Shown here: one piece after another, positions 16,259 to 57,816 of the stretch | How positions within the stretch are numbered: position 1 is the stretch's first letter | Layout of the letters: each line of letters begins with the position of its first letter | DNA from: Phoronis australis | Taxonomy: Eukaryota > Animalia > Phoronida | Reading direction: 5' to 3' | DNA: 64,000 bases | NCBI GenBank assembly: GCA_002633005.1 | Contig: NMRA01000006.1 | Coordinates: forward strand, 1,649,742-1,713,741 | Position numbers and translations under genes: made by a program | Notes under the pieces: model-generated | Databases searched by the model: none | Told to the model about the DNA's origin: nothing | Seen by the model: the letters and a program-made list of their open reading frames with translations, nothing else

Positions 16259-16474
<216 letters not shown>

Positions 16475-19284: not shown

Positions 19285-19330
19285 CTGCGAAGACTTGACA
19301 GAATTGATTCTAACGGAGAATTTATTGTCG
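19285..19330 (+). CDS. scrib: Scribble small exon, LRR (CEDLTELILTENLLS)
   Basis: ttacag|..|gtagg, 46 bp, phase 2-0; ELILTENLL is a Scribble LRR motif. Confidence 0.93.
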
Positions 19331-20075: not shown

Positions 20076-20159
20076 GAACTTCCATCTACGATAGGGAAAC
20101 TAAAGAAACTCTCCAATTTTAACGTAGACCGAAACAGAATTGGTGAATTTCCTCCTGAG
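20076..20159 (+). CDS. scrib: Scribble exon, LRR (ELPSTIGKLKKLSNFNVDRNRIGEFPPE)
   Basis: ttctag|..|gtaag, 84 bp, phase 0-0. Confidence 0.95.
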
Positions 20160-20582
20160 GTAAGTTTTATTTTATGACTGGCATGAATAGAGGAATGGAA
20201 CTTTACTGCCCAGGTCTCAAATGTCATATGTGGGGAAAAGATTAAGTAAACGCTAAGTACAATTTTATTGAATATGTCTCTCTCGTCGTTTTTGTTAGTG
20301 TGCTTGAATGAGGGTTACTATATCCAGAGTCATGTCAAAATGTTTTTCAACCTCGTTGGTATTGCTGTGGGGTGGTCAGAAGCCATCAATGGGAGACTTT
20401 CAAATAGCAACTTGACAACTGGTCTCTTGGGACTGGATACCAGTGACCTCTAGAGGATGAGGAGGCACTTAATAACTTTTTATAACACATCACGTCAAAG
20501 CATGTAGATTGTGAATAAGCCTTTTCGTGAAGTCAAACCGTTCCCCTATACCACCCGCTGCGAATACAGGGTAACTCTTGGT

Positions 20583-20606
20583 GCCGCTAGGTGGCGCTAT
20601 GAGTCA
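20583..20606 (+). promoter_or_regulatory. CTCF-like motif with adjacent AP-1 site
   Basis: gccgctaggtggcgc matches the CTCF core consensus; tgagtca at 20600-20606; motif match only. Confidence 0.4.
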
Positions 20607-21389
20607 GCGGTCCCATGTGTTCAGCCTCCATTGCTTTCTGAAACTCTCCCATTATGAAGCCGGAGTACGATTGTAAACCACTTTGGAAAGTCAAAGTAAA
20701 TTAGTTGCTAGGAGTTGCCAGTGAAAAATGGATTGATTGCACAAATACTTACAATCTGAATGAAGTGTCGTTGAATGTGGGCCACAACTTAGGTGCTTTG
20801 TTTGTTTGGCCATTTACCACTCAGTTCAAAGAAAAGTTTCGCGTGCAGTTGCTTCTTCGTTTGTGGTACTCTAGTGTTTGAAATTGTATGCTGTAACTTG
20901 TTGGTCTGGCAAGAATTGAAAGAAAGCACCTAACTGTAGGAATGGTAAAGCCAACCAGCAATGCTCAGAAATTCAGCAGAGTTCATTTAAAAGGACATAA
21001 TCGGGTTTAGGTTCAGAAAAAAGTGGATATTTGTCATTGTTGGTGAGATGGACTTATTGAAGTTAAAAGCTTTGATCAGAGCCATAAAACAGCAAGTCTA
21101 CTTCGATTTTTGCAGTTTTACTAGAAAATCGCTAATTGCCCACGAAGGCTTCCTTAGAATTAAGTTATTAAATTTATTAAAACGAGCTTAGAATACTCTG
21201 CTACTTGCCATGTTGGCTTTAAAGTCTACTAGTGTTGGACAGCCATTGTTGTGTTTGGGGTTTGTGTCCCATCTTGTGCACATCAAGTATACACAATAGT
21301 CGACAATAATGATACTCTGATCATTGTTATTATGGACCACTTGTGGTTGGTCTGTTGCCGTGGTTACACGTACACGTCTCTTGTTGCAG

Positions 21390-21505
21390 ATCGGCTTGTG
21401 CGTTCAGCTGAACGTGCTGTCACTCAGGGACAACAGGCTGATACACCTGCCAGACGAGATGGGCAACTTGAAAGACCTGCATGTCCTTGATGTGTCCGGC
21501 AACAG
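21390..21505 (+). CDS. scrib: Scribble exon, last LRRs (IGLCVQLNVLSLRDNRLIHLPDEMGNLKDLHVLDVSGNR)
   Basis: ttgcag|..|gtgag, 116 bp, phase 0-2. Confidence 0.96.
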
Positions 21506-21945
21506 GTGAGGCATTCTGATGAGAATGGGAATGTATTCTGATGTAAACCATGAAAATGTGGAAAGAACAAATATATGTCTCTCAACAGTTAATTAAGCAA
21601 ATGTGTTGTGGTGAACTGCTCTTTGAAGGCTTTTTAGTTGTAGTGTCCATTGGTGGATTTAGGATGTTGTAGGGGGCCTAGTTATAATTTTCAAAGTAAA
21701 AATGTTCACGTATGCCCCAAAACTGCTTGTAGATGAATAGGGGGAGGTGCTAAATCTGGACATGATGTCAATCAGCTATTAACACTGACTACAATTAACA
21801 GTTTTGATGAAAATGAAAATGTTGATGAAAGTGTCAGCTGATACAAAATCAGGCGAGAAGGGAAATGTTAGACAGATCCCCAACTTGGGCCAGTGGAATG
21901 TTATGACAACTCCATGTGTTTATCTCGTCTCTCTCGCCCACCCAG

Positions 21946-22118
21946 GATGTGCTGTCTGCCAATCACCATCACCTCCTGCAGTCTCAACGCCATCTGGCTG
22001 TCGGAGAACCAGGCTCAGCCGATGCTCAAGTTCCAGACAGACGTGTGCTCGCGGACGGGCAAGAAGTGTCTAACGTGTTTCCTGTTACCCCAGATGGGCT
22101 ACCACACGGAGAGCATGG
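21946..22118 (+). CDS. scrib: Scribble exon, LAPSD region (MCCLPITITSCSLNAIWLSENQAQPMLKFQTDVCSRTGKKCLTCFLLPQMGYHTESM)
   Basis: cccag|..|gtagg, 173 bp, phase 2-1; LAP-specific WLSENQ..LTCFLLPQ signature. Confidence 0.96.
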
Positions 22119-32245: not shown

Positions 32246-32419
32246 AGGGATTCACCACCTCCCAGCAACGCTGTTGCCAGCTTGGAAAGTGCTCCGTTAT
32301 CATCAACAGAAACAAATGAAGAAGAGATTAGGATCCGAGTTTTGCGAGAGCCCAACGAGGGGTTAGGCATTAGTATAGCTGGAGGAAAGGGCTCTAGTCC
32401 TTACAAGGGAGACGATGAG
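32246..32419 (+). CDS. scrib: Scribble exon, start of PDZ1 (..IRVLREPNEGLGISIAGGKGSSPYKGDDE)
   Basis: ttgtag|..|gtacg, 174 bp, phase 0-0. Confidence 0.95.
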
Positions 32420-32519
32420 GTACGATACAAGGGAGATAAGTACTATCCACTTCAAGCGGCTACAAACCTATTATCAGTTACCACCTTAAAATGGGTACCA
32501 ACTTGTTCCTTACCCAGAT

Positions 32520-32680
32520 AAGAGGGGATTGTGGATTTCTGGGTTCGCAAAGAGCTGACAGTTTTTCCTCGAGGTCATACTCAATGTATAAACTGACGTG
32601 CCGCGACAAGCCAACTTGTAGAGCCGGGTCTTGAGCAACAAACTGTCACTTCCTTCAAAGCCCTGAAATCACCTCTAATT
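32520..32680. repeat. Degenerate palindromic element
   Basis: gatttctgggtt..tgacagtttttcctcgag pairs with cttgagcaacaaactgtca..gccctgaaatc. Confidence 0.55.
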
Positions 32681-33017
32681 CAGCTAAGGAATAATTTGAA
32701 ATCAGTTTTATAACGGTAAGAATAATCTAAATGAAAAGTTGTTTTTTTTGCAATGGAAGACTGGTTTATAGCTGCTCTGTGGTTGTATAGGACCTTAAAA
32801 AAATCTCCAAATTTGGCTAATATCTCAGAAATGACAGATCAGATTTATATGAAACTTTAAGGTACTGTGTTTTTTGCGCACCATTATGAGTTGCTTTTGA
32901 AGTATTCCACATTGCATTAGGAGCTGACAAACAATAAAACTGGCTTAAAGCTTGCAATTTTGTAGATGTTTTGCTTGTCAATATGGTCCAAAATAACCTT
33001 AATTGTTTTGTTCCTAG

Positions 33018-33218
33018 AGTATATTTATTTCGCGGGTCAACCCTGACGGCCCTTCAGGCAAGCATGGTGTTCTTGTCGGGGACAAGCTGGTGTCTGTGAA
33101 TGGAATCAGTCTGCTTAATGCCTATCACCATGAGGCTGTCGAGGCATTAAAGAACAGTAGCAATATTGTTGACATGGTGATTGCCAGGGAACGTAGAATT
33201 CCTCTCGGAGAGTCTGTG
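33018..33218 (+). CDS. scrib: Scribble exon, rest of PDZ1 (SIFISRVNPDGPSGKHGVLVGDKLVSVNG..HHEAVEALKN..)
   Basis: cctag|..|gtaagt, 201 bp, phase 0-0. Confidence 0.96.
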
Positions 33219-33981
33219 GTAAGTTTTAGTTCTTTGCCCATTACCAGCGGTATTGCTATTCTCCATCTTTATCAGTGAGCATGTTTTGTCATGAATGAAT
33301 GCTGATTCATCTTCAGACTGTCTGATAAGGTGTGGTTCATTGCACAGTTGAAAGGGTAACGTCAGTATTGTGGTCTCACGCCTCGTGTCGTCTGCCACTG
33401 TCTTCTGTCCTGCTATGAGTTGGACAGAGGTTGACTCTGAGAATGTAACTGTTTTTGATGTTACCTTCAGTAAAAATACAAATCACTGGTTATCTTGGAA
33501 AGACATTTTTTCATATTAATTACTTTTCCATTGGCGTGTGTCTGCAATCCATGGGACAATGGAAAGTGACATAAATGGCCCAATAAAAGTTCATGCCTTG
33601 GTTCTGCATTCATCTTCATTGAGTAAATCAATGACTAACACATACTGTGTTCAATAGCGAGTAGGGTAACAGCAGAATCAAAGTGCAAGACTTGTGCTGG
33701 GCTGTAAAGATCGGGTTCTGTTGTTGCTTGGATAGACACCAGTAGAATAGTTATTATCACAGAAAAATATATCTCCGACTCAACCAGAGTTTTGCATTTT
33801 TATTGGATGTAATATCGAAAATGTTTGTGTTCCCCTTGAAATTAGTACTGAACAGTATGAGTACTTTTGTTGTTATTACGGGACCAAATGCCGTCTGCTG
33901 TGCTCAGGTAGAAGTATGTATGTGCACAATGAATGCTTCCTTGAGTGCATTTTATTACACCATAATAAGTATATCTTTAAG

Positions 33982-34132
33982 TGTTTTGAATGATAAAGAA
34001 GTGATTAGTATGTCTTGAGTGATAGAGAAGTGATCAGCATGTCTTGAATGATAGAGAAGTGATTAGCATGTTTTGAATGATAGAGAAGTGATTAGCATGT
34101 CTTGAATGATAGAGAAGTGATTAGCATGTCTT
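33982..34132. repeat. 29-bp minisatellite, ~5 copies
   Basis: Unit gaatgatagagaagtgattagcatgtctt. Confidence 0.92.
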
Positions 34133-36040
34133 CAGTCATGAGCGGCATGTAAATCCTTGATTTTAGAAATTCAGCACGATCTGCCTGCATGATGTATTGT
34201 GACATTTCATTCCCATTTTAGACTTATTGCTCATACTTTGTTTTTTCGATGCTTTTGTGCCTTTCATGTTTTTTGATTCAAAATTGTTTCTCAACTACTG
34301 AAAGTAAAGTTCGGCATTTATGATTTTATAGACTTTCTCCATGTCATGTTTGTTGAAATTTCATTGTGTTCATTTTCAATGGTGGTAGACTGCAATTCAG
34401 TGCCTTTTAAACGTTTCACAAGGTGTTATCATTTATCACGGTAATTTCTAATCTTTAGGTCTCTTTCGCTTGTTGCGTTTGTAAAGTAGCTGACATGTAG
34501 TAATGACAAACAGTTCTTAGAATTTCTCGCACATGTGTATAGTTCTTTATTTCTCTTCTCCCAAATATCTCTCTGTCAAATCAGTTTAGTCTGGTTAGGT
34601 TTCTACCCCATTACATTTAACAAGTACAACCTAACTGAGGTCACTGATGCTTCATTAACCTAAGAAGTACAATGGAACTCTTTTTTAAAGCCACATGCAG
34701 CCCTGCATTTAAGAAAGGCTCAAAAGTTAATGGATATTGTATTCAAAGGTATTTAAATTACAAATCTCGGGGTCAGTGATGATACCTCTGAAGTCGTAAG
34801 CAGTGTGTCACCAATGAGTGATCTGAGGTATCCTGCATTGTTTATATGGTTTTGGCGTCAGTATTGCGATTGCTAATTATTTGTCATTTCTCCAAACGTT
34901 TTCCCAGCACACGGAAACTGGAAAGGCCAATTCAAAACAGCGGGAGCTTGTCTTGTTTCTAGATTTTTACTCAAGTTTATTTGCTCAAGTCCCGTTGATT
35001 GTGCAAGTGCCAGTTCGATCAAGAGAGGCCTGACCTACTTTGCACATCACAGGCACTTGTACTCATTCATTGCCGTTAACTGCGTTGTATTCGTTTCCAA
35101 CTGGCGAATCACTCTGTTCGTATGGAAAACACTAGAGTTCCTCATGAAAATCGAACATTTTTCCTCTATTGTTGGCTAATGATAAACACATCCACTGCTT
35201 ACGCGTGATTGGGAGAATTGAGACTCTGATCATGAGAAAGATGATTTAGTTGGTATAAGTGCATCAGGCATTGCAGAAATTCTGGTTACAATGAATAACG
35301 AACGTATTTGTCAATTCGTACAATGTACAGTACATGGCAGAAGTATACATACGAAGTACAGTTTCCCGTTCATGACGGTTGAAGCTGTCATGACTTCATC
35401 ATTCTTGCTTCACTGATGATGAATTATGTTTGCACCTAAGGTGTCATGACCCGGAATTCAGTCTGTTTGTTGTGCAGTATTTTAGTGCGATATTTACTTC
35501 GTGAAAAAAAACAAAAACGAGATTTGTACTTTTAATCAATCAATTTCCTAGGCTTGCTCTTTATGACAAATAAAGTTCAGCAATAGTCTTTGGTTGTACA
35601 CTCTTTGTGGAAAACCAGGATAACATGGAAAATTGCCATGAAAACAAATCCTTTACTTGTAAAGCTCTGAAGATATTATAAAGACTAAAAAAATCTTGGA
35701 AAACTTAGGGATTGTTTCATTGCCATACCTCATTTCTGCCCTTTAATTTGTTGCTGCGTGTGGCTCTGATTTCTTTCTTTCAAGTCAAATGTATTTCTAA
35801 CCAATTCGTGTAATCCTTTTGCTTTCAGGTTTTGTTATTTTTACATTGCGTTGATTTGCCATTCGTGACCTTGCCAATGCATGTTAAGGCAATGCTCGAA
35901 GTTCTCCCAAGATTTTCACATCAAAGAATTTTTGTTTGCATTGTGGCCACAGTTAGGTTGAGATACCACCATAGTCACCATATTACCCAGCATGCATTGC
36001 TTGCATGTTCCTAACTTTTTGCTTGCCCTAACCATTACAG

Positions 36041-36130
36041 AAGTCTGTCTCTAACGAGTTGCCCAAGCACCGGGGCAGTGGTAATAGTGTTGCGTTCGCT
36101 CCTGAGCCTGAAATGGAGGTTCGTCAAGAG
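36041..36130 (+). CDS. scrib: Scribble PDZ1-PDZ2 linker exon, probably a cassette (KSVSNELPKHRGSGNSVAFAPEPEMEVRQE)
   Basis: ttacag|..|gtagg, 90 bp, phase 0-0; CTAAC and GCATG motifs upstream. Confidence 0.8.
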
Positions 36131-37058
36131 GTAGGTTATGTCTGCTTCTGGCGGCGATGTTTAACCAGTCCGCATGATTCACGAGTCCTGGTTGCATTTG
36201 TGTTTCGTAAACGGGTTTAACTACTCATGATCAGTCTTTCCATTCACACACTTCCCACTAAAATCACTACTGTAGGTATTAACAAGTTCATCCGGTGACT
36301 GGACTAAACAAGCCTGCTTTTAACAGACGTCTTGTTTTCATAAAATAGGAAATTATTTCAATTTAGTCAGTTCCAAGGCTTTTATGAGTTCAATTTCACT
36401 GACAAAAAGGCTAAACGTTTGCTCCTTTGCTTTTGTGGTCATTGAAAAGGAACTTTGAAAACTCACGGCCCTTCATGATTTTGGGGTTAAATATGGCATT
36501 GATTTATCACGATCGCAAACAGTTCAGACCATTTTTTATGCTCCCTCTTGAATACATGCTTTCCCATAACTGTCAATTCAACTACTGCCCCACAGTGTTC
36601 CCCCACAGTGTGCCCCCACAGTGTGCCCCCACTGTGGCAATTTTTTGTTTCTGCCTCCATGTGACAAGTCCCTCAATGGAACCTCGGATAAGTTCCTTAC
36701 TGGGAGAATACAGTTTTTGCCTTTTTAAAAACAAAATGCAGTTGTATCTCTTGGAAACATTTTTGTTTTAAATGCCCGTTTTTGAAATTTGGCAGCTGTG
36801 TTCTTGTCAATTTTCATGAAGTTGAGCGGACATGTTTTTATTAAGGATAGGCAGTGCACAAACAGCTAGCAGTGCGCCCTCTTGTGACAATTTCATACTT
36901 ACTTTCTGTTTCGCAATTTTTTCAAAAATCTTTTTCTTAATGTAGTAGCACTCCTGGTGACCAGAGTCATCACGAATCTTTCTTTGCTTGGACATGAGAA
37001 CCTCAGTACTTAAATTTAAGATGAGAGCTCTTGCTTAAACTTGACCTATTTCTTGCAG

Positions 37059-37151
37059 GTTGTTAGTACGGTGCTAGAACGTGATGAAAATGGACTCGGT
37101 TTCAGCATTGCAGGGGGGCGAGGCTCGATACCTTTCAAAGGTGATGACGAC
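37059..37151 (+). CDS. scrib: Scribble exon, PDZ2 start (VVSTVLERDENGLGFSIAGGRGSIPFKGDDD)
   Basis: ttgcag|..|gtaagt, 93 bp, GLGF loop. Confidence 0.96.
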
Positions 37152-37207
37152 GTAAGTACTTAGTTGTTGCATGTCTATGGCTCAACATTTCCAATTTTGA
37201 CAATAAT

Positions 37208-37300
37208 CACTTACAAGGGCCCCCGGATTTTGAGAACCAGTTTGTTGCTCATTATTCAGTGGAGAAAACTGGTTCTCAAAATGTGGGACCCCTGTAATTG
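37208..37300. repeat. Hairpin family A, copy 4 (same core, different outer arms)
   Basis: ttacaagggcccc..ttttgagaaccagttt..ttattcagtggagaaaactggttctcaaaa..gggacccctgtaa. Confidence 0.78.
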
Positions 37301-39992
37301 GCTATTACCCCAATGTTTGTTCTGCACAATGCGAAACCAGTGTGACTAAGTAAAAGTGCTTGTTGTATGAAATCAGTTGAAAGTTGGAAAGCCTCATTTG
37401 TTCATTATATATTGGCGCGTGCTTGAACCAAAACGATTGCTGTATGTGGTAAAATTTCCTTAACTTGAGACACTCAAAATTTATATGTGAAAATAAAAAT
37501 AAGTGTCATGTCTTCGCCTTTTTGTGACAAGCCACGGTCGTTAATTTAGAATTTCAACTTTTTATCATGAACAGGTAATGGTAATTTAATAAGTTTGCTT
37601 GACAAACAAGGGAGAGCTTTTAGGCCATGGGTTATGGTGGTAGTAGTAGTAGTCGACATGTTTGCCACCTCTGGTTATACTCTTTCACTGCCAAGCAGCT
37701 TACACATTCATTGTTAAGCACCTTTCAGCGAATTATGAATTCACTGCTGAACGAGCCAGTTGGCGAGTTGGGTACTTGCTCATTCTTGAACCTAGTTATC
37801 CTAAATAAATGTCATGGGAGATGACATCGGATGACAAGACATCAGTTTTACGGAATACTGAACAAAAGTTTTTTATTTCTGTCTTAATTTTGAATTAATT
37901 TATGTTGATGGCTTACTTGTCATTCCCTTTGTAGTGCGTTATAGCGGCATTTGAACTGTCTCCTTGCACAGGCTGTTATTAGTCAGCTAGTCCTAGTTTT
38001 AACACTTGTCTTTCGCATCTCGCACTCTTCTAGGCTTTGTATTACATTAAGGTAACCTTGTCGTCCACTGTAGTGTCACCGTGGAATGATAGAGCTAGGG
38101 CATGGCTTACCCATAATCCATCTGTTGTCTGTACATGCTCCGAGTCTCTATTGTTTTGTTCATCCATTATTGTTATGTTGATAGACAATTGAATTGACAA
38201 AATGAGCTATCATTCTTTAGTGCACAGGTGGGAAAAGTGCCATAGCTGTTACTATTTATAACCTAATTAGCATCGGTGACGAGACACGTGTCAGTCATTA
38301 CGGCATGAGTGATGGTCTAAGTATACTGAACAGTGTTCTCCTTGCATGGGTTCAAATACGGTGTTCTGCCATGTTTGGAAAGTTCTGCACCGAGTTTGGA
38401 AATTTTGAGTCACTTGTGAAGAGTTCTGAGCCGTGTTTCAGATCTTGATCTGTGTACGAAAATGCCAAGTTTTGACTGCTTTACAAAACAACTATTGAAA
38501 TAGTGTCGCCTAATGTTTCTTATTTTTATTATATCCTGTAAAAATAAATTAGTGCCCTCAGCAAGTGAAAATATTGTGTAGTGATTGTTGTCTCTGTGAA
38601 TTAATAGAAATGAAGATTGTGATGTGAGAACTCTCTGCGCAAGTTTGCACCATGTTTAGATTTTTGCTTAGGGACAACCCATCTTAACTCTATGTCTAAA
38701 AATTTCCGAGCACATGATGATTCACGATAAGTAATACTATCAGTGCTCTTTACTGTCAAAACTTGTCGGTTTGAAGTGTCAGGACATGTTATGTTAAAGG
38801 CATGGTTTTATTTTGTGGAGGACTGGACTTTTGTCTTGGAGGAGGCGTGCTTAGTTTTAAGAAAGGTGGTACTGATTTTTGTAGAAGGTTGGGCATTTAT
38901 TCTCTGGAAAGCATGGCTTTGTCTTGAGCAAGAGCTTTGTCCTGAGAAAGGCAGGTATTGTCTTGTGGAGGGCACTGCTTAAGTGGGTCTTTGTTATCAG
39001 ATAGGTGGTACATTGTCTTTTAGAGGATGGGCCTTTGTTTTAAGGTAGAGTTTTCGATTCTGTTTCTTGCAGAATGTCATTGTTGTTTACCACAACATGC
39101 CTTATCTTGCCACTGATGTATTGTGAAAACCCAAGGCTTACGCTTGACGTTTTTCCAAACAATTTTGTGGTTTACATTTTGAGTTTCCTTTAGTCAAAAA
39201 TAATTTTTATTCATTTTGACTTCACTGAGATTTCATTCATGATTTAATGTTCGTACATCCGTCGGTAGGCCAATACAGATGGTATCTTTCTGTGTACACT
39301 TTTTAGTGTGGCTGACTTAAATTAGCATAAAATGTTTTAGTGTCAAAAACAACCTTCTTCACCAGCGTATTTGCTCTTGTGAAGCAGTGATATATACCTA
39401 AATATCCTTGAGTGCTAGGGCTCCCTTTGTTGGCATGTTGTGTCTGTTCGTCAAGACCATACCCATAGCATGTAGCAGATTGTTTGTACCCTGGTATCGT
39501 AACCCCAGTACCTTCAGCATGTCATGTGGTGACCAAATCTGCACGTTCAGTACTGTGTTAGAATTAGTGTAATCATGTTTTGGTCACAAGAACTGGTCAG
39601 ACGATTTACTGTTGGTTCTTTTGTCTTAAACCTTCTGTTTACTACATTTGTAGAGTTGCCTACAGTTGTTTTCACTTTGTATAGTTTTGAGAAAAGTTAG
39701 AAATGAAGAAGCATGTCACTTGTGAAGTGGGATTCTTCTGTTTTAAAATTGTTTTTGCATTGTGATGGTAACGCTATCGGTTTATTTATCCCTATAACCT
39801 TGAGCACATAGTGTAATGTTTTCTTGTTAAAGTGTTGATTATAAAGTTGACGCTTTCAGCATTTTTCTGTTGTTAGCCTGAGCTTTGCAATGTTGCATTT
39901 TCGTGCATGTTTGGCTTAAAAGGAAATGTCGTTATGTCGATCAGTTGTTTGGGATTTTTCCTTGCTTCATGGTTCATTTATCTTACGTGTAG

Positions 39993-40073
39993 GCCATCTA
40001 CATATCTAGGATAACAGAAGGCGGCGCTGCAGACAGGGATGGTGTGTTGCAAGTTGGTGATCGCATTCTGTCG
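39993..40073 (+). CDS. scrib: Scribble exon, PDZ2 (AIYISRITEGGAADRDGVLQVGDRILS)
   Basis: gtgtag|..|gtgagt, 81 bp. Confidence 0.96.
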
Positions 40074-40189
40074 GTGAGTTAACTTTTTACTGATGGGGTG
40101 AAGAGCTTGGAGGAAATGTGGTATTTAGAGGAATGTCTGCATTGTGACTGCGAGTTTACTATGTACTGGAGGGGTAGGGAGTTAAGTGC

Positions 40190-40233
40190 ATTAAGTTACT
40201 ATTAAGTTACTATTAAGTTACTATTAAGTTACT
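40190..40233. repeat. 11-bp tandem repeat x4
   Basis: Unit attaagttact. Confidence 0.9.
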
Positions 40234-40594
40234 ATAGGGATATCTGCATTCATGATGTTCACACTTGTAGTTTTCATAAAGACGCAGACAAAATGTCCTT
40301 GTTGAAATTTGATGAGATTTTGAGCAAACATGTGACTTGCGCCTGTTTTTGACCACAATTTTGACAAGACTGTCTGAGCCTCAACAAAATTCACCAATTT
40401 CTTGAACACAACTAAGACAAGTCTCCATATACACTACTTAGGGACAGTTTAGCTTTCGTTCTCTCCATCAGGCCTGCTGAGCTTATTTACACCCCAAAAA
40501 AGAATCGTAGGAATCGAAGGTACAGCTGTTTATCACGTCTCACTTCCCCTCTGTTGTGCCACATTTCTTGCAACATTCGAAAATCACGTTTCAG

Positions 40595-41041
40595 ATAAAC
40601 GATGTGGACATGACCAACGCCCACCACGAGGATGCCGTAACACTGCTCACTAGTCAGGGTAACAGTGTCAAGCTAACTGTCACGCGCGACAAGTTTGTCA
40701 TCAAAGAACCCAAGCTTCCACCCAAGGCAGCAGGCTCGTTGGGCGGTTTTTCGACCCCCTCGCCGTCATCTTCACAGTATTCCCTCCGCTCCTCGGAACA
40801 GGCTCCGGGCATTACGCCGCAGAAGAAGGTCCAAACTACAACGTACAAGTTCGACCCCATTTCGGGCCGGGCGATTCCCTACGTGCCAGAGATCGAGGAG
40901 CCCGAACCAGTGGTGCGCAAATCAACAACTGTCGTCACGGTGTCAGCGTACACGAAGCCAGAATTGGCCGCTGGGAAGAAATCGTACACGGTTGTCGATA
41001 AAAGTGGAACGCTTCGCACACAAGAGATAAACTCAATACAG
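40595..41041 (+). CDS. scrib: Scribble exon, PDZ2 end plus S/T/P linker (INDVDMTNAHHEDAVTLLT...QEINSIQ)
   Basis: tttcag|..|gtaga, 447 bp, phase 0-0; within ORF 40556..41248. Confidence 0.92.
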
Positions 41042-41280
41042 GTAGAGCTTCGAAATCAACACCTCTTGTTTCTGTGTGGGATACTGTGGTCAGAATGGAG
41101 CTCATATGTGTTGTTTTTTACTGTATTTCTATTTTATCTTACTTTGAAGTTGGCAATTTTTGATCCACCGACGTATTTATCCATCATAAAGGCATTTGTT
41201 TACACTGAAAATTTCACCAGTTCAGGACACAATATGATGGCCAAGTGAAATTCATAAATTTGTAAATGATAAGTGGCACC

Positions 41281-41592
41281 AAATATTAATGCCTGTATCT
41301 TTTAACCTCTATACCATAGTTACCACCAGACAAATATTAATGCCTGTATCATTTAACCTCTATACCATAGTTACCACCAGACAAATATTAATGCCTGTAT
41401 CATTTAACCTCTATACCATAGTTACCACCAGACAAAAATTAATGCCTGTATCATTTAACCTCTATACCATAGTTACCACCAGACAAAAATTAATGCCTGT
41501 ATCATTTAACCTCTATACCATAGTTACCACCAGACAAAAATTAATGCCTGTATCTTTTAACCTCTATACCATAGTTACCACCAGACAAAAAT
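41281..41592. repeat. 51-bp minisatellite, 6 near-identical copies
   Basis: Unit aaa(t/a)attaatgcctgtatc(a/t)tttaacctctataccatagttaccaccagac. Confidence 0.95.
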
Positions 41593-41955
41593 TGTAGAAA
41601 TTTTGACAAAATTTTTACAAATTTTTTCCATTCTTACGAATGTTAGAACCCTTTGAAAAAGGTCGACTTCAGGAAAGACTTATGTCCGAAATTGGTTGGC
41701 TTATTGTACATTATGTTTTAATCTACGATTAAATCTCTCTAGTTTCGCATGAATCTGATCATCTAATTCTGAGATATAATGTTCCAAAGTTAGTCAAATT
41801 TGGACGTTTTTCTAGGGTACTTCATGACTGGCATGGGATTTCTTTGGTGGTTATAAATTGCCAGTTTTGTAAAAATGAATGCGGCTTTTTCCCACTCAAT
41901 GGTTCTCGACTGTGAAACTGTGTTTTTGATGACTATGGCTTTGGACTGTTTACAG

Positions 41956-42066
41956 CACTACGTAATCCCTAAGCATGGCGGACCACTCGGTCTAAGTGTG
42001 GTTGGTGGAGTAGACCACATTAGTCATCCATTTGGAGTAGATGAGCCAGGAATCTTCATTTCTAAG
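41956..42066 (+). CDS. scrib: Scribble exon, PDZ3 start (HYVIPKHGGPLGLSVVGGVDHISHPFGVDEPGIFISK)
   Basis: ttacag|..|gtatg, 111 bp. Confidence 0.96.
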
Positions 42067-42796
42067 GTATGCATCTATTATCTTTAGTCATAATGTCTTT
42101 TTTGCTGCAGTCATTTAATTTCCTTATTGTTAGGCTTACGCATCCTATTAATTTTTGTAAAATAAGATACAATGCATTAAACTTGTATTTTGCATCGTTT
42201 TCATTTTCTATTAGTCTACTAAGGCAAGGAGTCTGGTCATGACCATTGTTCGAATCTTAAACTCAAAGTAACAGGCTACCTTTGTTACCAAGGAAAATTC
42301 CAGGCACGCTTTTGAAGCTAATAGAATAAAAAATAAACCGAATTAACAAGTTTTGTGTGAAAAATTCATGTTTGTGAAAAGGAAGCAGATCTCCGTGAAA
42401 ATCATGATTCTTTTACAAACATCATCGTATGATTACGAACATCTGGGCATTGTTATCGTGGACATAATAAGATTCTGTGGTCATCAAGTAGTTGATAAAC
42501 ATATTGTTTAATGGGTTAGCTAATAATAGTTAAAACATTATTTTCGAAATTTGATCGTTGGTAACTATAGTTGACATTTTCTAAATTAAATGCTTTATGA
42601 AGAGCGTTACTTTCTTTGCAAGGCTTGTGGCTTCAAATGAAATTGGCAATGCTTGGTTCCTAAAACTTCACGTTCTCTGTACTCATTAGCAGTGCTACAG
42701 AAGTTTTCCATTAGATTTCGAATGTGAATCGCACAGTGATTTGTACAGGGCATTTCAGCATGATGTATTATTGACCTTTTCGTCTCATCTCTGTAG

Positions 42797-42973
42797 ATTG
42801 TCCCAGGGGGAGTTGCCGCTAGGACAGGCTTAAGAATGGGTGATCGCATTTTGGAGGTCGAAGGTCATGATGTTACTAAGGCAACACATCAGGAGGCAGT
42901 ACAGCTGCTGTTAGAGCCGCAGGACGAGGTCCATCTTCTTGTGAGGCATGATGCACCACCGCCTGGGCTCATG
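42797..42973 (+). CDS. scrib: Scribble exon, PDZ3 end (IVPGGVAARTGLRMGDRILEVEGHDVTKATHQEAVQLLL..RHDAPPPGLM)
   Basis: ctgtag|..|gtgag, 177 bp. Confidence 0.96.
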
Positions 42974-43300
42974 GTGAGAATTGATGGTTGGGGTAACGAG
43001 TGATGCTATATGCCTGAAAGTTTCCGCTCATAATTAGTTTCTATGTTGTCATGGAAACTGGAAGTGTTATCTCAGCTTGTGTCAGAACTTGTTTCATCCG
43101 TCACACACAAAATCAGGAATGTGCACCCACAGGCTCATCATAAATTTAGTTTAAATTGAATTGCTTGCACCTCCTTATGTTATGCCGTGGATTTGTTAAG
43201 ATGATCAGTAGCTCATATTTCGTAAGTCGCAATGTTTTCACGTGTTCAACCAAAGACATACTACGTAATTTATGAAACATTTTGTGTTACTTGCTTTCAG

Positions 43301-43417
43301 GAACTAAGTATTATTAAAAATCCTGGAGACAAGCTGGGCATCAGTATTAGAGGTGGAGCCCGTGGTTACCCAGGAAACCCTCTAGACAATACTGACGAGG
43401 GCATCTTCATCTCCAAG
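43301..43417 (+). CDS. scrib: Scribble exon, PDZ4 start (ELSIIKNPGDKLGISIRGGARGYPGNPLDNTDEGIFISK)
   Basis: tttcag|..|gtaat, 117 bp. Confidence 0.96.
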
Positions 43418-44702
43418 GTAATATCTTTTGTTGCCAGACTACAGTGTTGATCAATAGCCGCATCCCACAACACCATAGTGACCTTTCTGATTCTGCAGTT
43501 CTTACCCACGATGCTACACACCTTTATGGCACTTGGCCAACAGCTGTACACTGCTGCCATGACAATCGCCATTTTGCTTAAAGATTAGTTTGTCATTTGT
43601 GATTATTCTGATGCACAGTGGATTGCAATGCAGACATAAAAAGAATTGGAAAAGCTGAGTAGGGCTTGATAAATCATCCTTCACTTGTCCAACTTTGGTT
43701 AGAAGTGAGTTGGCCGCCTTGCCTTTCAAGAACTAGGCCGGTCTTACAATGCATTTTTGTGTCTCCGCTTAAGAGAAAAGTTGAATCTGGGATGTGGGAA
43801 TTGTCCTTCAAGAAAAATAGTATCTTGACATTTAAAGTTTCTGATAGTGAATTAATTCTGTTTTATTATCCAGTATAGAAATAGGGGACATCTAATGACA
43901 CAATTGCTGAGTTTTGAAATAACCCCACCATATTGAAATTGAAATTTACATACCCTCCAGATGGTGATGATGTCTTTGATGGACAGGCGTTGAACGCCAC
44001 CTAAAGATCCCGTGTAATGCGGACGAGAGGTTTTAACCTAGTGATATAAACACCGTTATGACACCTTTCCTTCTATCATAATGCCGGCAAATTTCATTGA
44101 TGTGCGATCGGGTGTACTAATGGCTTATGAAAAAGGCAAACCTCGTGAAATATTGATAGATGAAGGAAAGAATGTCACATGCATTTCCCAGCTGCATAGT
44201 CGGTAGCTGTGGCTGATAAAAGTGGTAGAGTTTCCCAACCAGTGTCAAAAAGCTGTAATAAGTGAGTGAACTTAACCTAATCAAACAGTGGGAGGGGTTG
44301 ACAATAGAATCTATTCCTGTTTTTAAATTAATTAGCCACTATATGTAGCAGTGAATGTCTGTCCACCAAATCTGAGTTGGTATAAAGTGCAAATCACTAT
44401 CTCACTCTCATTATTCTATTCAGCAGAAGTGAACTCCTTCGTAGTACATACCCACTGCAAGTTACATTTCACTATGAGTTTTATTGTCGCTGTGCTTTGA
44501 TAACAACCCACTTTACAAGGACCAACAATTAGCTCTCTACCTTTTGCATTGCTATTAGCGTTTGATTTAGCGTGTAGCATTACGATTTGTGTTTCTGCCA
44601 TTAGCTTTGTGAATAATTATCCTTTACCATTATAATTAACAGTACTACCGCAGTTCTGGAAGAGCGTGAAATAAATTATTGACTTTTCTCAACTATCTAC
44701 AG

Positions 44703-44984
44703 ATAACTACTGGTGCGATCTCACGTGACGGACGCCTCAAAGTCGGCGATCGCATCCTGGAGGTGAATGGCCACAGTTTTATCGGTGCCAACCACCAGGA
44801 GGCGGTGCGAGCGCTGCGGTCCATCGGCGACCGACTCAACATCACGGTTTGCGAGGGCTACGACCCTGATATGGCTGCCACGTCTCCAAATACATCCATG
44901 TTCTCCATGGGTAGTAGGTCAGGGTCAAAGGGCTCACTGTCCAGTGTTGACCGGGAGGACTCAGACACCGAGATCTTCAGACAG
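44703..44984 (+). CDS. scrib: Scribble exon, PDZ4 end plus SLSSVDRE motif
   Basis: ctacag|..|gtgtgt, 282 bp; ITTGAISRDGRLKVGDRILEVNG..HQEAVRALR..CEGYD..SLSSVDRE. Confidence 0.95.
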
Positions 44985-50767: not shown

Positions 50768-51094
50768 CCAGAGCCAGTGACAAAGAGTCAGCTACCGATG
50801 CCTGTGTCGCGTTCATCAATGGCGGGGACTGTCACACGATCCCAGCCCACAGAAACGACCAAGGTGACGCAGTACCGGCCCAAGTCAACCAGCCAATCAG
50901 GGTCCAACATCCCGTCCTACCGAGGCTCGACGTCATCCCTGGGATCGTCATCATCGCGTCTACCAGGTGACATCACGGTCGTCAAGACGACGACCGTGGT
51001 GAAGCACATCCACCCCGAACAGCTACCACATGGTGGTCGGAGCTCATCATCTTCGTCAGCGAGTAGCCCTGTATTTGCTCACAAGTCGCCCGTG
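50768..51094 (+). CDS. scrib: Scribble Ser/Thr-rich exon with SQLP, SNIP and SRLP motifs
   Basis: tttaaag|..|gtaag, 327 bp, phase 0-0; within ORF 50750..51148; acceptor position less certain. Confidence 0.83.
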
Positions 51095-52337
51095 GTAAGA
51101 GTTAGTAAAAGCAATCATGGCTTGTCACTTTCAAATAACCATGCATAGTCATTGTTGGTAGTAATTGATTCCCATTATTGTCGTCCCGCACATGCACACC
51201 TGATAGGCAGGAGTGATGCTAGTATTGCCATGACATTATAGACATTCTTTTTGTTAGCTGTCCAAACTTCTGCGGTTTTATGCAGTGAAATTTCAGTGTA
51301 GTCATTTTTTCTTGGAATAATGTATTCTGAATTATGCTATAATAAAATGTGTGTGGGATTCCAAAGTTGCACTGGAAGACTCGCTAACCAAAGAATGCTC
51401 ATTGTGTTAAGTACCCTCAGTTATATGTAAACAGATGGCACTGTCTGGATATGTCTATCCAGGCAACACAAAACCAAGCTTGGTGCGTCTCAACGTAGTC
51501 ATGCAAAGCTCATCCTATTGCACAGTAGGGCTACTAACTGTAACTGTGAGTTTGCAGAAACTCTAAATATAGTCGAATGTTTGACTTTGAATTTACTATA
51601 AGAAGGGTTTGTGAAAAGTCCTTGAATTTTTTTAAAGGTAACTGAAAGCTCTATATATAGTGACGTTGACACTTTGTGGAATCTTATGTTATGTCAAAGA
51701 ATCTCGTGTTTGTTATTCATATGTCAGTTCCTAAGGAATTAAGTGTGCATATCAAAGTGACATGGTGTTTTTTGTAATATTTGAATCTATGTGGGAGTTG
51801 TCCATCGTTTATTCTGCTGTGTTGTTTTAGCATTTATACTTGGAGTGCAAAATTTTGATTGAATGCTTGAATTTTGCATTAACTAGCCTGGCCTGTGGAT
51901 CAATTTGGGCATGTTGGCCTATGCTTGCACAGAGGAACTCTGTGTGCTTTTTTTAAACATTAAGTTCATTTTGGTACTGTATTTAATTCGGGATTGAAAT
52001 TCAGCCTCTGTAACAGCATGGGTGCAGCTTTGGTTATGTAATTTGGTTATGTAATTTTAATTGGAAAACATGTTAGATATCACATTTCCTTCTAATGGCT
52101 AGAACATTCTGGTACTAAAGTCTGGCCTCGAGCTATGAGAGGTCAGAGAACTAACTTTTGTTCAAAGAGTCTAAATTTTCTTGTTTTGTCCTAACTGCTA
52201 ATATTTATTACCTTTTGTCAAAGAAATTGATTTTAGTAGTGAAAATCTAGTCAAATCTGTTCAAAACTTTTGACATGGGACTTGTGATGTCCAATCATAA
52301 CTTAGCTAACTAACCGTGCCATTATGCTTGCACACAG

Positions 52338-52496
52338 CCGGTGCCATCTACCACGCCCACTAAAGTGCCTCCTCCTGTCAAACCTAAGCCCAAGTTACGA
52401 CCTGTCGACCTCAGCAGTAGCAGCGAGGATCTGCTTGACCCGGTCAGGTGCGCGCGCCGTCCGTCGGCTCAAATTGTCGCATCCCCGCCTTCCGAG
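52338..52496 (+). CDS. scrib: Scribble Pro-rich probable cassette exon (PVPSTTPTKVPPPVKPKPKLRPVDLSSSSEDLLDP...PPSE)
   Basis: cacag|..|gtaac, 159 bp, phase 0-0; alternative in-frame donor after 52442 (gtcag); flanked by CTAACTAAC and GCATG motifs. Confidence 0.75.
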
Positions 52497-53633
52497 GTAA
52501 CCAAGCATTTCTAAAGCGTGTGACACGTTTCGGTGCGTTTCGCAAGGCCGCAGCATGCTTTCACTAACTAAAACAGTTGTCATGCTTGCCGCATGCTTAT
52601 TGCTGCTTGAGTTGATTGCTGTTGTTCTAGTGTTGCATTTGCTTGCCCCTAATAGCATCTGCTTGCAATGAAGAGTTCAATCCAATGCCCGTGTCCTGCT
52701 ATGTCCCCCTTCCCTTGTACATAAACATTTCCCACCCTCTGTCTGTCCTTGTTGCGTCCTGTTCAAGTCTTGTTCTCCGTCTACTGAAATGCTTTGAAGG
52801 TACAGTGCATGACAAAACTAATCAGATGAAATAACATTTCCGGTTATGACAGTCACTTCTCCCAAATGCTAAAATAGCTGGTAATGATTGTCATGTCAAC
52901 TAAATTCTAATTACAGAAAGGCTAACTTTCTCGTTAAATCCCCCTTTTGTTTTCGATCGTTATGGAAGGGTACTCTGAATCTGAATTTGACTTGGACCCT
53001 GTCATGACGTGGAGTTTTGTCATTTTGTCTGAATGGTTTTGGCGTGTACTGTTTAGTAGAGATTGTGCCAGAGGAGTTTCATTTTTGGAAAACTGCTGAA
53101 CTGAGAGTTCGCCGGAGTGTGCGCGTGCGCGTGAAAGATGCCACAATTCACATTATAAATGCCAGCTTTGCGCAGATACGCCATGCTGAATTCTAGTAAT
53201 GTTCTCGTGAAGAGAGAAGGTACCTCAGAAGAGCATTTATCATGTAAAATGTGGTACGTTTGGTACAAGGTGCCCTCTACATATGTATGACTGTAGTATG
53301 GAGTGTAGAGGCTCGTGAAACTTACGTTAGCTGTGCATACGAAAGGTACGTGAGCTGTACTAAACCGTAGTTAGCGTGACTAAACTATGACCAGCATTGT
53401 ACTACTAATGTGTTGGAGCTATGGAGCACCGCAATAAAAGCTTGTAATGCTTCAATGGTAGGTCTTGTTTTATTACGTTCCCTTCCCAGTTCAGTTCAAT
53501 TTGACCAACACGAATTAACCGCATGATGTAACACAACCGACTGATGGGTGAAAAGGAGTTTAACAACGGTAACATCAACTTGTGGCTGCTGCCGCATTGT
53601 CGAAATGTCTATCCTGGTCGTGTATGTTGACAG

Positions 53634-54476
53634 AACAAGAAAACATTCGATGGGGCATATGACTCGCCCAGCAAGCGAGCGTTCTCGTCCATACCAGTAT
53701 TTGGTGGAGATGTCACGCCAGTCAAGAGAGCGTCGAAAATGGAGCACAGTCCAGTGGCTTCTCCGAGGCAGTCTGCAATACCCGTTGTGAGAGGTTCTCG
53801 GATTCCATCCTCCTCCTCCTCTAAGTTAGTTGCTTCCCCTAGGTCTGACCCATTTCAATATAGTGATGACAGCTTCGATGGCCCTGCTGAAACACATTCC
53901 CATCAGTCTTCTTCGCCATCTGTTGACGCTGTTTCATTGGAGGTCGATAGAAGACAGGAAACCTACGCCCCGCATGACACTGCATTCAGTTCTCTGTCTT
54001 CTGCATCTGGAACTGCTCTTAAAGAAACTCCGGTTGTGGCAGTCAGTTCTATGCAAGAGGTTTCATGTCAGGATGTACAGTCAACTGGCGAGATGGTTGC
54101 TGAGGTTCCCCCTGTCCGACCGTCTTCAATTCCAGCGCCATCCAAAAGGCCCACTCCTGTGCCTCGGTCCTTGAAATCTGGTAGCATTAAATCTGGCATT
54201 CCTAGCCCAGGTCAATCCGTCATTTCTAAGAAATCTACAGGGGAATTGCCCAGTCCAGTTTCGCCTCTAGCTAGTTCTAGACCTGCTAAAACACCACAAC
54301 CTGCGTCAGCACTGCCCAAGCCTAGCATCAAGACACCAACAAAATCTGTAGGCTCTGGTATACCAAGGGCATCTCCATCGGGATCGAAGACGCCATCGCA
54401 GAGCTCTGAGACTGGCATAGGAGCCATGTCCCTCGAGGACCAGCGACAGTCTGGTATACCTCGGCCTGGTACCAAG
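53634..54476 (+). CDS. scrib: Scribble large Ser/Pro-rich exon with eight SxIP/SxLP motifs
   Basis: tgacag|..|gtaagt, 843 bp, phase 0-0; in frame with ORF 53739..54545. Confidence 0.88.
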
Positions 54477-56334
54477 GTAAGTGGTACATGGTCCCTGTCT
54501 CCTGCTTTAGTCTATGCCTTTCAGTTGCTGGAGTTCTGTGCCTGAGTATGGCTTACTTCAGCTTTGTTTTTCATTTCCTTTCCTTTCCTGTTGGTGCGGG
54601 CGTCTTTGAACTCTTTGAAAACTATAAAATCTCAGTAGAGTCGTTGTCATTTTGGCTTCGCTTGCGTGAGGTAAACCTAAGGTTGTACTTTGAATGTAAG
54701 TCAGCTAGATCTGTCATTCATTTGGCATTGTCGCTTGATTTGCTTTTTGGTTGAACCAGTCATCTGGTGCTTTCTCCCTTTAATTTTCTGCTTCAGACTG
54801 TTTCAGTTTCAGTTTCTGGTAAAATTCCAGTTGCACTACCACTGAAAAAGGTGTAATCGAAAAATTTCTCACGGTTCTAGTGGTCGTACGCGTGCTTTGC
54901 TACAAGAGTAGCTTGATGGTGGTGTAGACATTGATGCATGACGAGTCCTATGCTGTTCTAGCTCTTAAAACCATGTCCATGTGCATAGACAGGCAGATTA
55001 TGTAGGACTTAATCACACAGTTTAAAATCGCGGTGGCAGTGTGACTCGGGCTTTAATGGAAGCAAAATGTAGCTGAGTTTGTGTGATGTTGGTTTGATAT
55101 TGAGTTATTGAAAAGCGAACCAATATTTGGAAAACAGTGTATTTTTTCTGTGTTTGAACTTAAAGTGGATTCGCACATTTCTCATAGTACTTGCTTCTCT
55201 TATCAAGACGTTCGACGTGTCTAAACATCAAGGGAGTTTCGGATGGTAGTGATGAGTTTGTGCAAGATTGATTAAAACTGAATGCGATGTATGAAGAGAT
55301 CATTTCTATTACTGGACCTGCGAAAGTTCTTTTGATGATTTGACCTCAGAAAGTTAAATTTTTTTATTTTTTAGAGTGACAGGTGTATGTTTTTAAAACT
55401 TTCTTCAAAATGCTGGTCAAAATAACTTACATAGACAAGAAATTTTGGAAGTTGGAGTTGATGGAAGGGCATGGTGAAAACGATGAAATATGTTTCCTTT
55501 TGAAAGTGCTGGTAGTTCTGGAGGACTCCAATATTTCATTAACTTAATCTCTCACAACTACTGTTTATTTTAAGTAGATATCTATTAAAAGTAACTCCCG
55601 TTTGGTTTCCATATCGACTATCACGTCATAGGTAGGTTCCAGCCCATACCACGTAATTAAAGTTAGTTTTGCATAAGATTGCATGGAGGCATTGCATTAA
55701 CACCAACCATGCCAGTGTGGATTACAAGATATAAGGTAACTGTGCTATGACATTCTGGGGGTCATTTTTGCAAAATAAGCTCAGATCCCAATGCAGGCTT
55801 CACTTCACTAATTCTGATGACCTCATTAATAAAAGTTAAGTAGTTGAAATACGGTTATAAGCACTTTTGAAATTTCCGTCGTACTTGGGCAATGTTGTGC
55901 TTGATATTTGAAAGCTATTTTGTGAACTTGGCCCTAGATGTCTCCCCCATAGCTAGCTGCTTGTCGCATGAATCACTGAAATGCTCTCAGAATTACCTTA
56001 ACTATATGCTTTGCCCAGTAGAAAAACTTAGTCTTCTTCTGGTAATATGTTGTCTAAACTCAACCTGTTATTATTTATTGTGTGTTTTATGTTAAATGTG
56101 TTTTGTGGTTCGTTTTTCCTTTCAGTTTCCAATTTAGAAATTAATGAACACAGTTGTTCACGTTTAGTGTAATCCTTCCTAATGCTGTTTTAACTTTCAT
56201 TTTTCAAGTCGGAAATCTGTTAATCTCACTGTTTTCTTCGATCTACTGTTGAACAATTCTAATAATTATTGTGTAGGTTACGTGCGAGTTGTTTAGATGA
56301 TAATGTCTCCATTGTGGGTATGCTGTGTTTTCAG

Positions 56335-56407
56335 GGTGATGGCAACCTGTCGTTTAGCCAAAAGAAAACTTATTTTGAGAAAGAAATTGAAGCTCAGACT
56401 ACTCCTG
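56335..56407 (+). CDS. scrib: Scribble exon with LSFxxKxxYFE (SADH/spectrin-binding-type) motif (GDGNLSFSQKKTYFEKEIEAQTTP)
   Basis: tttcag|..|gtaag, 73 bp, phase 0-1; resembles vertebrate Scribble LSFRERQKYFE as I recall it. Confidence 0.9.
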
Positions 56408-56752
56408 GTAAGAACTGTATGGTTCGTGCTCATTCAATTGTTTGTTTATTGTGAAGAGTGATTAAATTCACCAAATGGGCATTGTGTTGTGTTTGTTTTG
56501 AGGAACTGCTTATGGCGATACATGTAGTGTTTTAGTTCAAATTTTGCGTAGCACTACAGGTCCTCGGTGCCTTGACTTTGGAGCCGAATACTGGCCCCAC
56601 TCCGCTATGAATTTTTTAAAATCACGTTAAGTTCCTCTCGTCAGTCCCAAAAGTTCCTCACCAATAATTAAAAAATTCCCCTCAATGTTCACGGTTGGAA
56701 TCACTTGTGCAATATGTTTTGGCTACTTGAGCCAATATCAATGAGGGGTTAC

Positions 56753-56993
56753 CAGGGCTTGGAATTTTCCCCTTTTAAAAGGATTTCCTCCTTTGGTTTC
56801 GATTTCCTCTTATTTGATTTCTAGTTTACTCTTTTTGTCTCTTTTTATCATTATTTTAACTTTATTCATGCGAAAACGTTTATTTTTCTTAAATTCATTT
56901 TACACCACAAAAATATTTCTATCACATAAGCCTGTGGAATGATACACCACCTGGAAAATTTTCCTCTTTTGTCATTGGTCATTCCAAACCCAG
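56753..56993. mobile_element. MITE family B copy 3
   Basis: cagggcttggaat..attccaaacccag, TSD ggttac; 3' part similar to copy 1. Confidence 0.82.
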
Positions 56994-57161
56994 GGTTACA
57001 ACGAGAAGTGGTGGAATATGGAATTGATGGTGACCAGAGCCTCACGGAAGTTATAGGTACCTTTCCCCATAAGTGAGTGAGGGCCCTGCCTTGCAATAAT
57101 AACACGCTGTTTATTTTCAAACGAGTGTAAATTATCTGATTTGTTATGAATTGTGTTCCAG

Positions 57162-57186
57162 AAACTTCCGATGGTCTGTCTTCAGG
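57162..57186 (+). CDS. scrib: Candidate 25-nt microexon (ETSDGLSSG)
   Basis: ttccag|..|gtaagt, phase 1-2; in frame with the acceptor at 57673. Confidence 0.65.
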
Positions 57187-57672
57187 GTAAGTTCATTTCT
57201 GGTAGTGTTTTGTTGTTTAGCTATTATTGCATTTCCAGATAACTTAAACTTGCAGTCAGTTCTGCCTTTAATAATTGTTGTTTTGCTTACTTTTGTGTTG
57301 AACCAGTGCTTATTGTGTGTTAAATTACTGTGAGAGTATTTTATGTACTGCTATCGAGATCTCTCTGTTGAACTTAACCTCACGGGGTGTTGGCTTAATA
57401 TACTGCATGTGGTCTTTTTCTTTGCTTATTGCAACTTATCTGGGCTGAGATTTCTTGCTGAAAAGCTGTACAGATCATGTGCAATCGCTGGCCAGTTCTC
57501 TAGTTCTTTTGTTCATGCTTCTCAAAAAGAGGAGAAACGACCTTAAAGATAGAGCAATTAACCACCACAGAATTAAGATTTTCAGTCTTTGAAAAGTGAG
57601 ACAGCCTTGCGTGTGCATCTTTCTGCATTCCCCTCCTTCAGGGGAAGTTTCCACTTTCTTTCGTCATTCTAG

Positions 57673-57816
57673 TATTCCTGTGCGCAACGCAAAACTCGAC
57701 AAGAGTCGATTACCAACCAGGGTGCCCGGTAAAACGTTGGTCACGTCCGATAGGTTGACCGCAAACGACAGAAATATCAAGGAAGCTGAAAAGCGGGCAC
57801 GAGAGCGAGTGGCAAG
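57673..57816 (+). CDS. scrib: Scribble exon (IPVRNAKLDKSRLPTR..EAEKRARERVAR); alternative upstream acceptor at 57642
   Basis: ttctag| (phase 2) or cttcag| (57642, phase 1) ..|gtctg; EAEKRA..AR is the conserved Scribble C-terminal motif. Confidence 0.85.

Follow-up and report, generated by a model that had tools for sequence, protein, structure and literature searches.

SxIP motifs that lie in basic, Ser/Pro-rich disorder bind the EBH domain of EB proteins (PMC3649978), and tandem copies of them strengthen localization to microtubule plus ends (PMC3967968, PMC3115796). The subject of this report is a cluster of such motifs in the scribble gene of the phoronid Phoronis australis. The gene occupies much of a 64,000-nt stretch of contig NMRA01000006.1, referred to here as the window, and all coordinates are window positions. 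A first-pass annotation had described 13 SxIP/SxLP motifs in the C-terminal region of the encoded protein and proposed that they link it to microtubule ends.

Two groups of described systems are relevant. The first consists of microtubule regulators with several EB-binding motifs: SLAIN2 uses several partly redundant SxIP sites (PMC3115796), and GTSE1 has functional SALP and SGLP motifs with CDK1 sites beside them (PMC3517537). The motifs of the window resemble these in being tandem SxIP/SxLP copies in a basic, Ser/Pro-rich, probably unstructured region with adjoining Ser/Thr-Pro sites. In contrast to these cytoplasmic proteins, for which binding has been shown, the Scribble cluster sits on a cortical scaffold of leucine-rich repeats (LRRs) and PDZ domains, has seven to eight copies that pass the sequence rule described below, and is switched by splicing, and its EB binding is putative. 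The second group consists of other Scribble proteins. The closest precedent is vertebrate SCRIB, where an array of SADH motifs, one of them in an alternative exon, binds spectrin (PMC4350421). Both systems place repeated short motifs for cytoskeleton binding (putative in the case of P. australis) in the poorly conserved Scribble tail, with some in an alternative exon. The consensus and the partner differ, however, SADH being bound by the CH1 domain of beta-spectrin, and the distribution of S.IP among animals is the reverse of that of SADH. The group also includes the long Scribble isoforms of Mytilus (for example XP_076084778.1) and Drosophila (D. melanogaster isoform R), which likewise have rule-conforming SxIP clusters in the tail, in some isoforms only, although the motif exons of P. 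australis have no alignable similarity to them and the motifs are unnamed in the annotations seen.

Spindle orientation and centrosome repositioning both require Scribble (reviewed in PMC10720656). What the Scribble tail does outside vertebrates has been described as unclear (PMC4350421). If the reading favored here is correct, a direct, splice-controlled EB link would give this tail a function and Scribble a physical route to microtubule ends, and a cassette of Drosophila with three four-residue motifs would make the link testable in a standard model. In the literature searched, a scope that excluded most subscription journals and the original SxIP screen, we found neither SxIP motifs nor EB binding described for Scribble. 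The search did not extend to the main supplementary file of PMC4365484, on the EB1 interactome, and so could have overlooked Scribble among EB partners listed by mass spectrometry. The mention of EB in bioRxiv 2026.05.24.727532 refers to the allele EB112 only, and the portion of PMC7026268 covered presents scrib as a Tau modifier with no EB link.

The SxIP Cluster of the Scribble Tail

Most of a scribble gene lies on the forward strand of the window, with LRR exons, exons for four PDZ domains and a long tail (tblastn, Pfam), and the SxIP cluster of this tail is real, non-random and controlled by splicing, and has counterparts in mussels and flies. The 13 S-x-[IL]-P cores claimed for it were all found, in the exons to which they had been assigned and in one reading frame of the gene. 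Exon A (50768–51094) holds SQLP at 50786, SNIP at 50903 and SRLP at 50954. Exon C (53634–54476) holds eight cores, namely SSIP at 53685, SAIP at 53772, SRIP at 53796, SSIP at 54123, SGIP at 54192, SALP at 54306 and SGIP at both 54354 and 54450, arranged as two basic clusters (53685–53807 and 54123–54461) around an acidic, motif-free middle. Exon F (57673–57816) contributes SRLP at 57704 and an SGIP that arises only across the 57186>57673 splice. All 13 fit the core pattern of EB ligands, [ST]-x-[IL]-P. An in-frame length polymorphism was observed at 53808, where all six reads of one RNA run (X4, see below) lack six bases of a Ser run directly after SRIP, leaving the motif intact.

The number of cores is well above the expectation for shuffled composition, a check that the first-pass annotation had proposed. 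The 523 residues encoded by the exons from 50768 to 57816 contain 13 instances of S.[IL]P, whereas shuffling gives a mean of 0.99 and a maximum of 6, with none of 20,000 shuffles reaching 13. For S.IP the figures are nine observed and 0.44 by shuffling, with Ser at position −2 of all nine IP dipeptides, and no other three-letter pattern of the same spacing is as strongly over-represented as S.IP (Poisson 1e-9; next pattern, 7e-5). Shuffling within 30-residue blocks gives a mean of 1.09 and a maximum of 8, and the other ten frames of exons A and C contain one core in total. Four of the cores are SGIP with similar codons. Tandem duplication of DNA was considered as the source of the motifs and rejected, given that exons A and C contain no tandem or direct DNA repeat that would explain them; since, moreover, codons are varied, the pattern appears to be kept at the protein level. 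The motif region contains no Pfam family. A single-sequence AlphaFold model of it has a mean predicted local distance difference test score of 47.8 and no secondary structure, although alignment-free folds are often poor anyway; the motif tail of exon C is likely to be disordered.

A stricter description of functional motifs, the SxIP-9AA rule, calls for a basic residue in X1–X4 and no acidic residue in X1–X6 (PMC6138660; also PMC9877351). Eight of the 13 cores pass: one of three in exon A (SQLP at 50786, with SNIP at 50903 and SRLP at 50954 failing), seven of eight in exon C, and neither the junction SGIP nor SRLP 57704 in exon F. Eight passing cores compare with a shuffle mean of 0.43 and a maximum of 5. 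Once the 13 cores are taken as given, the quality of their flanks is moderately above background, both for passing cores (8 vs. 4.0, P = 0.02) and for acid-free flanks (11 vs. 7.4, P = 0.04). The basic, acid-poor context reported earlier for most of the motifs is therefore borne out, in that flanks are mostly acid-free and basic.

Splicing of the Motif Exons

Splicing was followed in three stranded RNA runs (X2, X3 and X4), 18–19% of each being read, and in a set of assembled contigs (X1), all four labelled as one species; read counts are given in the order X2/X3/X4. Twelve joints were listed around the alternative block, at a threshold of three reads in a run, and the joints downstream of 56335 come from a second listing of 15 out of 42. 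Every joint from the last PDZ exon to exon A is supported, with 12–25 reads in X2, 10–23 in X3 and 0–4 in X4; the joints of the six constitutive exons that follow PDZ4 have 14–25 and 10–23 reads in X2 and X3, respectively. One X1 contig spans 44731–51090.

Three junctions had been named earlier as tests of the exon chain. Two were seen, 50237>50768 (12/12/2 reads plus contig) and 54476>56335 (1/4/2 reads plus contig); the 12 listed joints do not include the third, 52496>53634. Exon B (52338–52496), an optional, Pro-rich exon without an SxIP core, is joined to exon A (51094>52338, 3/4/0) and to the common acceptor (52496>56335, 3/2/0), with no joint to exon C among the 12. Exon C, also optional and 281 codons long, is entered from exon A (51094>53634, 3/1/0), and both exons can be bypassed (51094>56335, 5/2/0). 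The donor at 51094 thus leads to 52338 in seven reads, to 53634 in four and to 56335 in seven, and the acceptor at 56335 is reached from 54476, 52496 and 51094 in seven, five and seven reads. Inclusion of exon C accordingly accounts for 4 of 18 junction reads counted at the donor and 7 of 19 counted at the acceptor.

These three read-supported routes from 51094 to 56335 yield one, one or eight motifs that pass SxIP-9AA. Because exon C holds seven of the eight, its splicing shifts the passing count from one to eight. Both exon A and exon C are flanked by AG/GT ends and, as the first-pass annotation had stated, are phase 0-0, and the suggestion that the module could be switched by splicing holds for exon C; it fails for exon A, no skip of which is among the 12 joints. 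Exons A and C also share an mRNA with the PDZ exons, as joints and contig attest. Exon F does not in the reads listed, where 43 reads of joint 57186>58668 (21/14/8) skip it and 44 loose read ends behind 56407 agree with the skip form at 0.97–1.0; rare inclusion may occur. The array of 13 consequently stands as a set of cores and falls as a working valency: the largest read-supported form has 11 cores, eight of them passing, and no transcript with all 13 is supported. The segment of exon F is also skipped in one mussel isoform (P0073, Mytilus coruscus), which resumes at the same M-K-S-L as the skip form of the window, so that the cassette and its skipping may be old.

Intron depth is near 0 upstream of 50768 and 1–7 on the sense strand from 51094 to 56335, compared with about 24 in exon A. 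The unspliced reads of 51095–56334 may come from introns that are removed slowly or retained, or from transcripts that end after exon A, whose read-through meets a stop after 17 codons. An X1 contig at 52739–53425 has a depth of 53, compared with 67 for the spliced contig.

SxIP Clusters in Other Scribble Proteins

For comparison, 431 proteins were collected. The counts cover the 374 of them that have both a species label and a PDZ anchor and leave out the other 57 (fragments, unnamed or non-Scribble). The search for homologues of the last PDZ exon covered proteins of up to 2000 residues, and isoforms above this length in other animals may have escaped it. Scanning of orthologues, another check proposed by the first-pass annotation, showed that passing clusters recur in annotated Scribble of Mytilus and Drosophila, and that motifs are conserved above their flanks within Mytilus and in a Drosophila cassette. 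In three species of Mytilus, 16 of 25 proteins have eight or nine passing SKIP/SRIP/SRLP motifs and the other nine, four of them partial records, have one or two. The count depends on the isoform, being 8–9 in long forms and 1–2 in short ones, and the large mussel cluster lies between the helix that follows PDZ4 and the F-x-x-K-K-x-Y-F-E landmark, which is the interval of exon C in the window.

The Drosophila tail was reached via a D. sechellia fragment, and the set was then retrieved with that fragment as query. Of its 120 proteins, 111 have at least three passing motifs, D. melanogaster isoform R (A0A0B4K784) among them, and so do 25 of the 26 species labels, a frequency that is biased upward because the query itself held the motifs. 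All three lie in one cassette at the position of exon F, and other annotated fly isoforms are without it. Across 25 species, the cassette shows no variation at any of its 12 core positions, compared with 45 invariant positions among the other 154, the columns not being independent. Long Drosophila isoforms (P0195, P0234 and others) have a further conserved T-S-G-I-P-R near the C-terminus in 114 of 120 proteins, which passes SxIP-9AA only in some species. According to the first-pass annotation, such an array is not known from vertebrate or fly Scribble. The 73 vertebrate tails compared indeed lack S.IP; the long fly isoforms carry the motifs, so the feature is not special to P. australis.

One motif site can be followed across phyla. 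Directly before an R-T-x-K-A-E landmark, SRIP is present in all flies and mussels that have the site, the junction SGIP of the window sits there, and the site is off consensus in scallops, oysters, abalones, locusts and vertebrates. Exons A and C align with none of the proteins compared, so the large clusters of P. australis, mussels and flies may have been amplified separately, or they have turned over beyond recognition. For exon B there is a match to a mollusc DP[IV]KQ[AS]R[LM]P site (E 1.1, second match), and homology between the two is only suggestive.

Vertebrate tails contain no S.IP in 46,134 residues of 73 proteins, at a similar Ser/Pro/Thr content; one frog tail has a passing SGLP. 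Of the 12 vertebrate labels, 11 have SADH motifs; the invertebrate proteins counted have none, and the consensus Y-[KR]-x-[FL]-A-A-[ILV]-P has no match in the three forward frames of the window. The pattern L-x-x-P-T-P-h also has no match in the forward frames.

A Putative EB-Binding Module

The sequence of the tail resembles a multi-SxIP module of a plus-end tracking protein (+TIP), with the status of EB ligand putative. Exon C is an optional exon that adds seven rule-conforming motifs to the tail; with a probability of roughly 0.6, these bind EBH and so turn the isoforms that include the exon into multivalent holders of growing microtubule ends. Confidence differs between parts of this reading. 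As a fragment, exon C would quite probably bind EB as a multivalent ligand; that the isoforms capture or steer plus ends at the cortex is a possibility of slightly less than even odds. In the mechanism proposed, each motif would bind the EBH domain weakly and tandem copies would add avidity, as judged from known +TIPs, and phosphorylation of the neighboring Ser/Thr-Pro sites could switch binding off, as in GTSE1. Because the LRR region is a cortical anchor (PMC4350421), the long charged helix that follows PDZ4 would hold the cluster out into the cytoplasm. In cell types that include exon C, the cluster would from there capture plus ends, or steer them, at lateral membranes, junctions or synapses. 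A wider proposal is more tentative still: protostome Scribble, that of Drosophila included, may have an overlooked direct plus-end link. The SxIP cassettes of its tail, alternatively spliced and amplified separately in mussels and P. australis, would enable this basolateral polarity scaffold to capture EB-decorated ends at the cortex of particular cell types, while vertebrates use the tail for spectrin binding.

Several observations weigh against this interpretation. Most random or bare SxIP peptides do not bind EB1, which prefers Arg or Lys at x (PMC3967968); such a residue is present in 3 of 13 cores and one of the eight that pass, compared with nine of nine in Mytilus protein P0075. The junction counts for exon C are small (four and seven reads), and the introns from 51094 onward carry the unspliced reads described above. 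Exons A and C have no alignable orthologue, none falling below E 0.03 among the 431 proteins, and a search with exon C against 5747 candidates of 493–2000 residues gave no homologue, which is weak evidence. Eighteen other invertebrate labels (156 proteins) have no more than two passing motifs, including the nemertean that best matches exon 61963. In flies, the query contained the motifs, and two of the cores lie inside longer invariant blocks that were perhaps kept for another reason.

The residue at x leads to the first of three alternatives, according to which S-x-I-P is under selection but serves a different binding partner, or the main role of the basic, Ser/Pro-rich exon is to bind the microtubule lattice or to form condensates, EB binding being minor. 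Most cores of the window have Gly, Ser or Ala at x; the related mollusc site, KQARLP, KQARMP, KQSRMP or KQSRVP, is conserved but off the EB consensus; vertebrate tails repeat another short motif, ending A-A-[ILV]-P, for spectrin (PMC4350421); and GTSE1 binds the lattice without EB1 (PMC3517537). We nevertheless regard this explanation as unlikely, as the copies share only the S, I/L and P positions that make up the EB consensus, those of mussels and flies are textbook SRIP/SKIP in basic, acid-free 9-mers, and the SADH consensus is absent from the forward frames.

Similarly improbable is a reading in which the motifs do bind EB but serve hitch-hiking delivery on growing ends, or act in shorter cytoplasmic products without LRRs, rather than in cortical capture. 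Junction reads downstream of 56335 (22/18/6) outnumber the spliced reads that enter it (9/8/2), the upstream joints have as few as 0–4 reads in X4, and an X1 contig that starts inside exon C has a depth of 188, compared with 67 upstream, all of which would be expected of short products. Library 3′ bias and slow splicing account for the same read numbers, however, and the joints connect exon C through exon A to PDZ4. In flies, several of the annotated isoforms that include the cassette carry PDZ families and lack LRR families, although most fly isoforms and all full-length mussel isoforms with a cluster have both. The weakest alternative, that the motifs arose neutrally from low-complexity sequence or internal duplication, would suit the high Ser/Pro/Thr content of exons A (47%) and C (40%), the four similar SGIP cores and the lack of orthologous exons, but it is highly unlikely in view of global and local shuffles that give about one core and never 13, the lack of DNA repeats in both exons, vertebrate tails of similar composition that have none, and the separate clusters of mussels and flies.

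Gene Structure and Other Features of the Locus

The assignment to Scribble/LAP4 rests on the domain order, with an LRR and LAP-specific region at the N-terminus and four PDZ domains after it, all collinear with those of orthologues. The LRR and LAP-specific exons lie at 7116..22117 (residues 94–427 of mollusc and nemertean Scribble in collinear tblastn; Pfam LRR at 16259–16474) and the PDZ exons at 32309..44984 (tblastn, Pfam PDZ), the last, for PDZ4, being 44703–44984. With this exon as query, 2260 proteins were found, and nearly all of the 120 listed bear the name Scribble or LAP4. When tblastn scores are summed, scallop, nemertean, oyster and abalone proteins come out on top and those of flies and vertebrates lower, which would by itself make a lophotrochozoan-like invertebrate probable but is a score ranking and not a tree.

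Six constitutive exons follow on the forward strand (46645–46701, 47041–47105, 48311–48488, 48910–49061, 49357–49474 and 50064–50237; RNA joints, X1 contig and translation). They encode about 200 Glu/Arg/Lys-rich residues that, by composition, likely form a helical spacer, resembling a single alpha-helix. The Glu/Arg/Lys repeats at 46645–50100 are almost pure and far longer than the matching stretch in the orthologues compared, and a 45-nt DNA period occurs within this coding region at 48931–49035.

Beyond the alternative block, exon D (56335–56407), its common acceptor, carries the conserved Scribble landmark F-x-x-K-K-x-Y-F-E and is the top match of a profile from 22 orthologue segments (E 3.2e-5 among 2164 pieces). 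Joint 56407>57162 (22/18/6) connects it to a 25-nt micro-exon (57162..57186), from which the junction SGIP derives its Ser codon and a portion of its Gly codon. Exon F, phase 2-2, is the top match of a profile from 27 orthologue segments (E 0.0043) and the best match of the window to that conserved Scribble segment; by this similarity it is a diverged copy of the conserved Scribble cassette. Further forward-strand exons lie at 58668–58729, 61450–61478, 61963–62154 and 63885 onward (joints 58729>61450 and 61478>63885). The exon chain translates without a stop from PDZ4 to 63959, and the gene extends past the window end. The 64-codon exon 61963–62154 is kept in invertebrate Scribble tails (54 matches, the best full-length one being nemertean, at 66%); it has no Pfam family and is skipped in the joints listed.

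Two near-identical duplications are probably assembly artefacts: 294 bp at 12775–13510, duplicated at 100% around a single N at 13069 and doubling an LRR exon, and 466 bp at 45072–46487, duplicated at 98.5% around a 484-N gap. The introns of scribble also harbor multicopy elements. A short one at 56750–56990, in the intron after 56407, has heavy cover of diverged reads. A 1.6-kb element at 59730–61349 has 19-nt terminal inverted repeats, a sub-threshold THAP match at 59899–60132 (E 0.02) and many diverged RNA reads on both strands, and is likely a non-autonomous DNA transposon.

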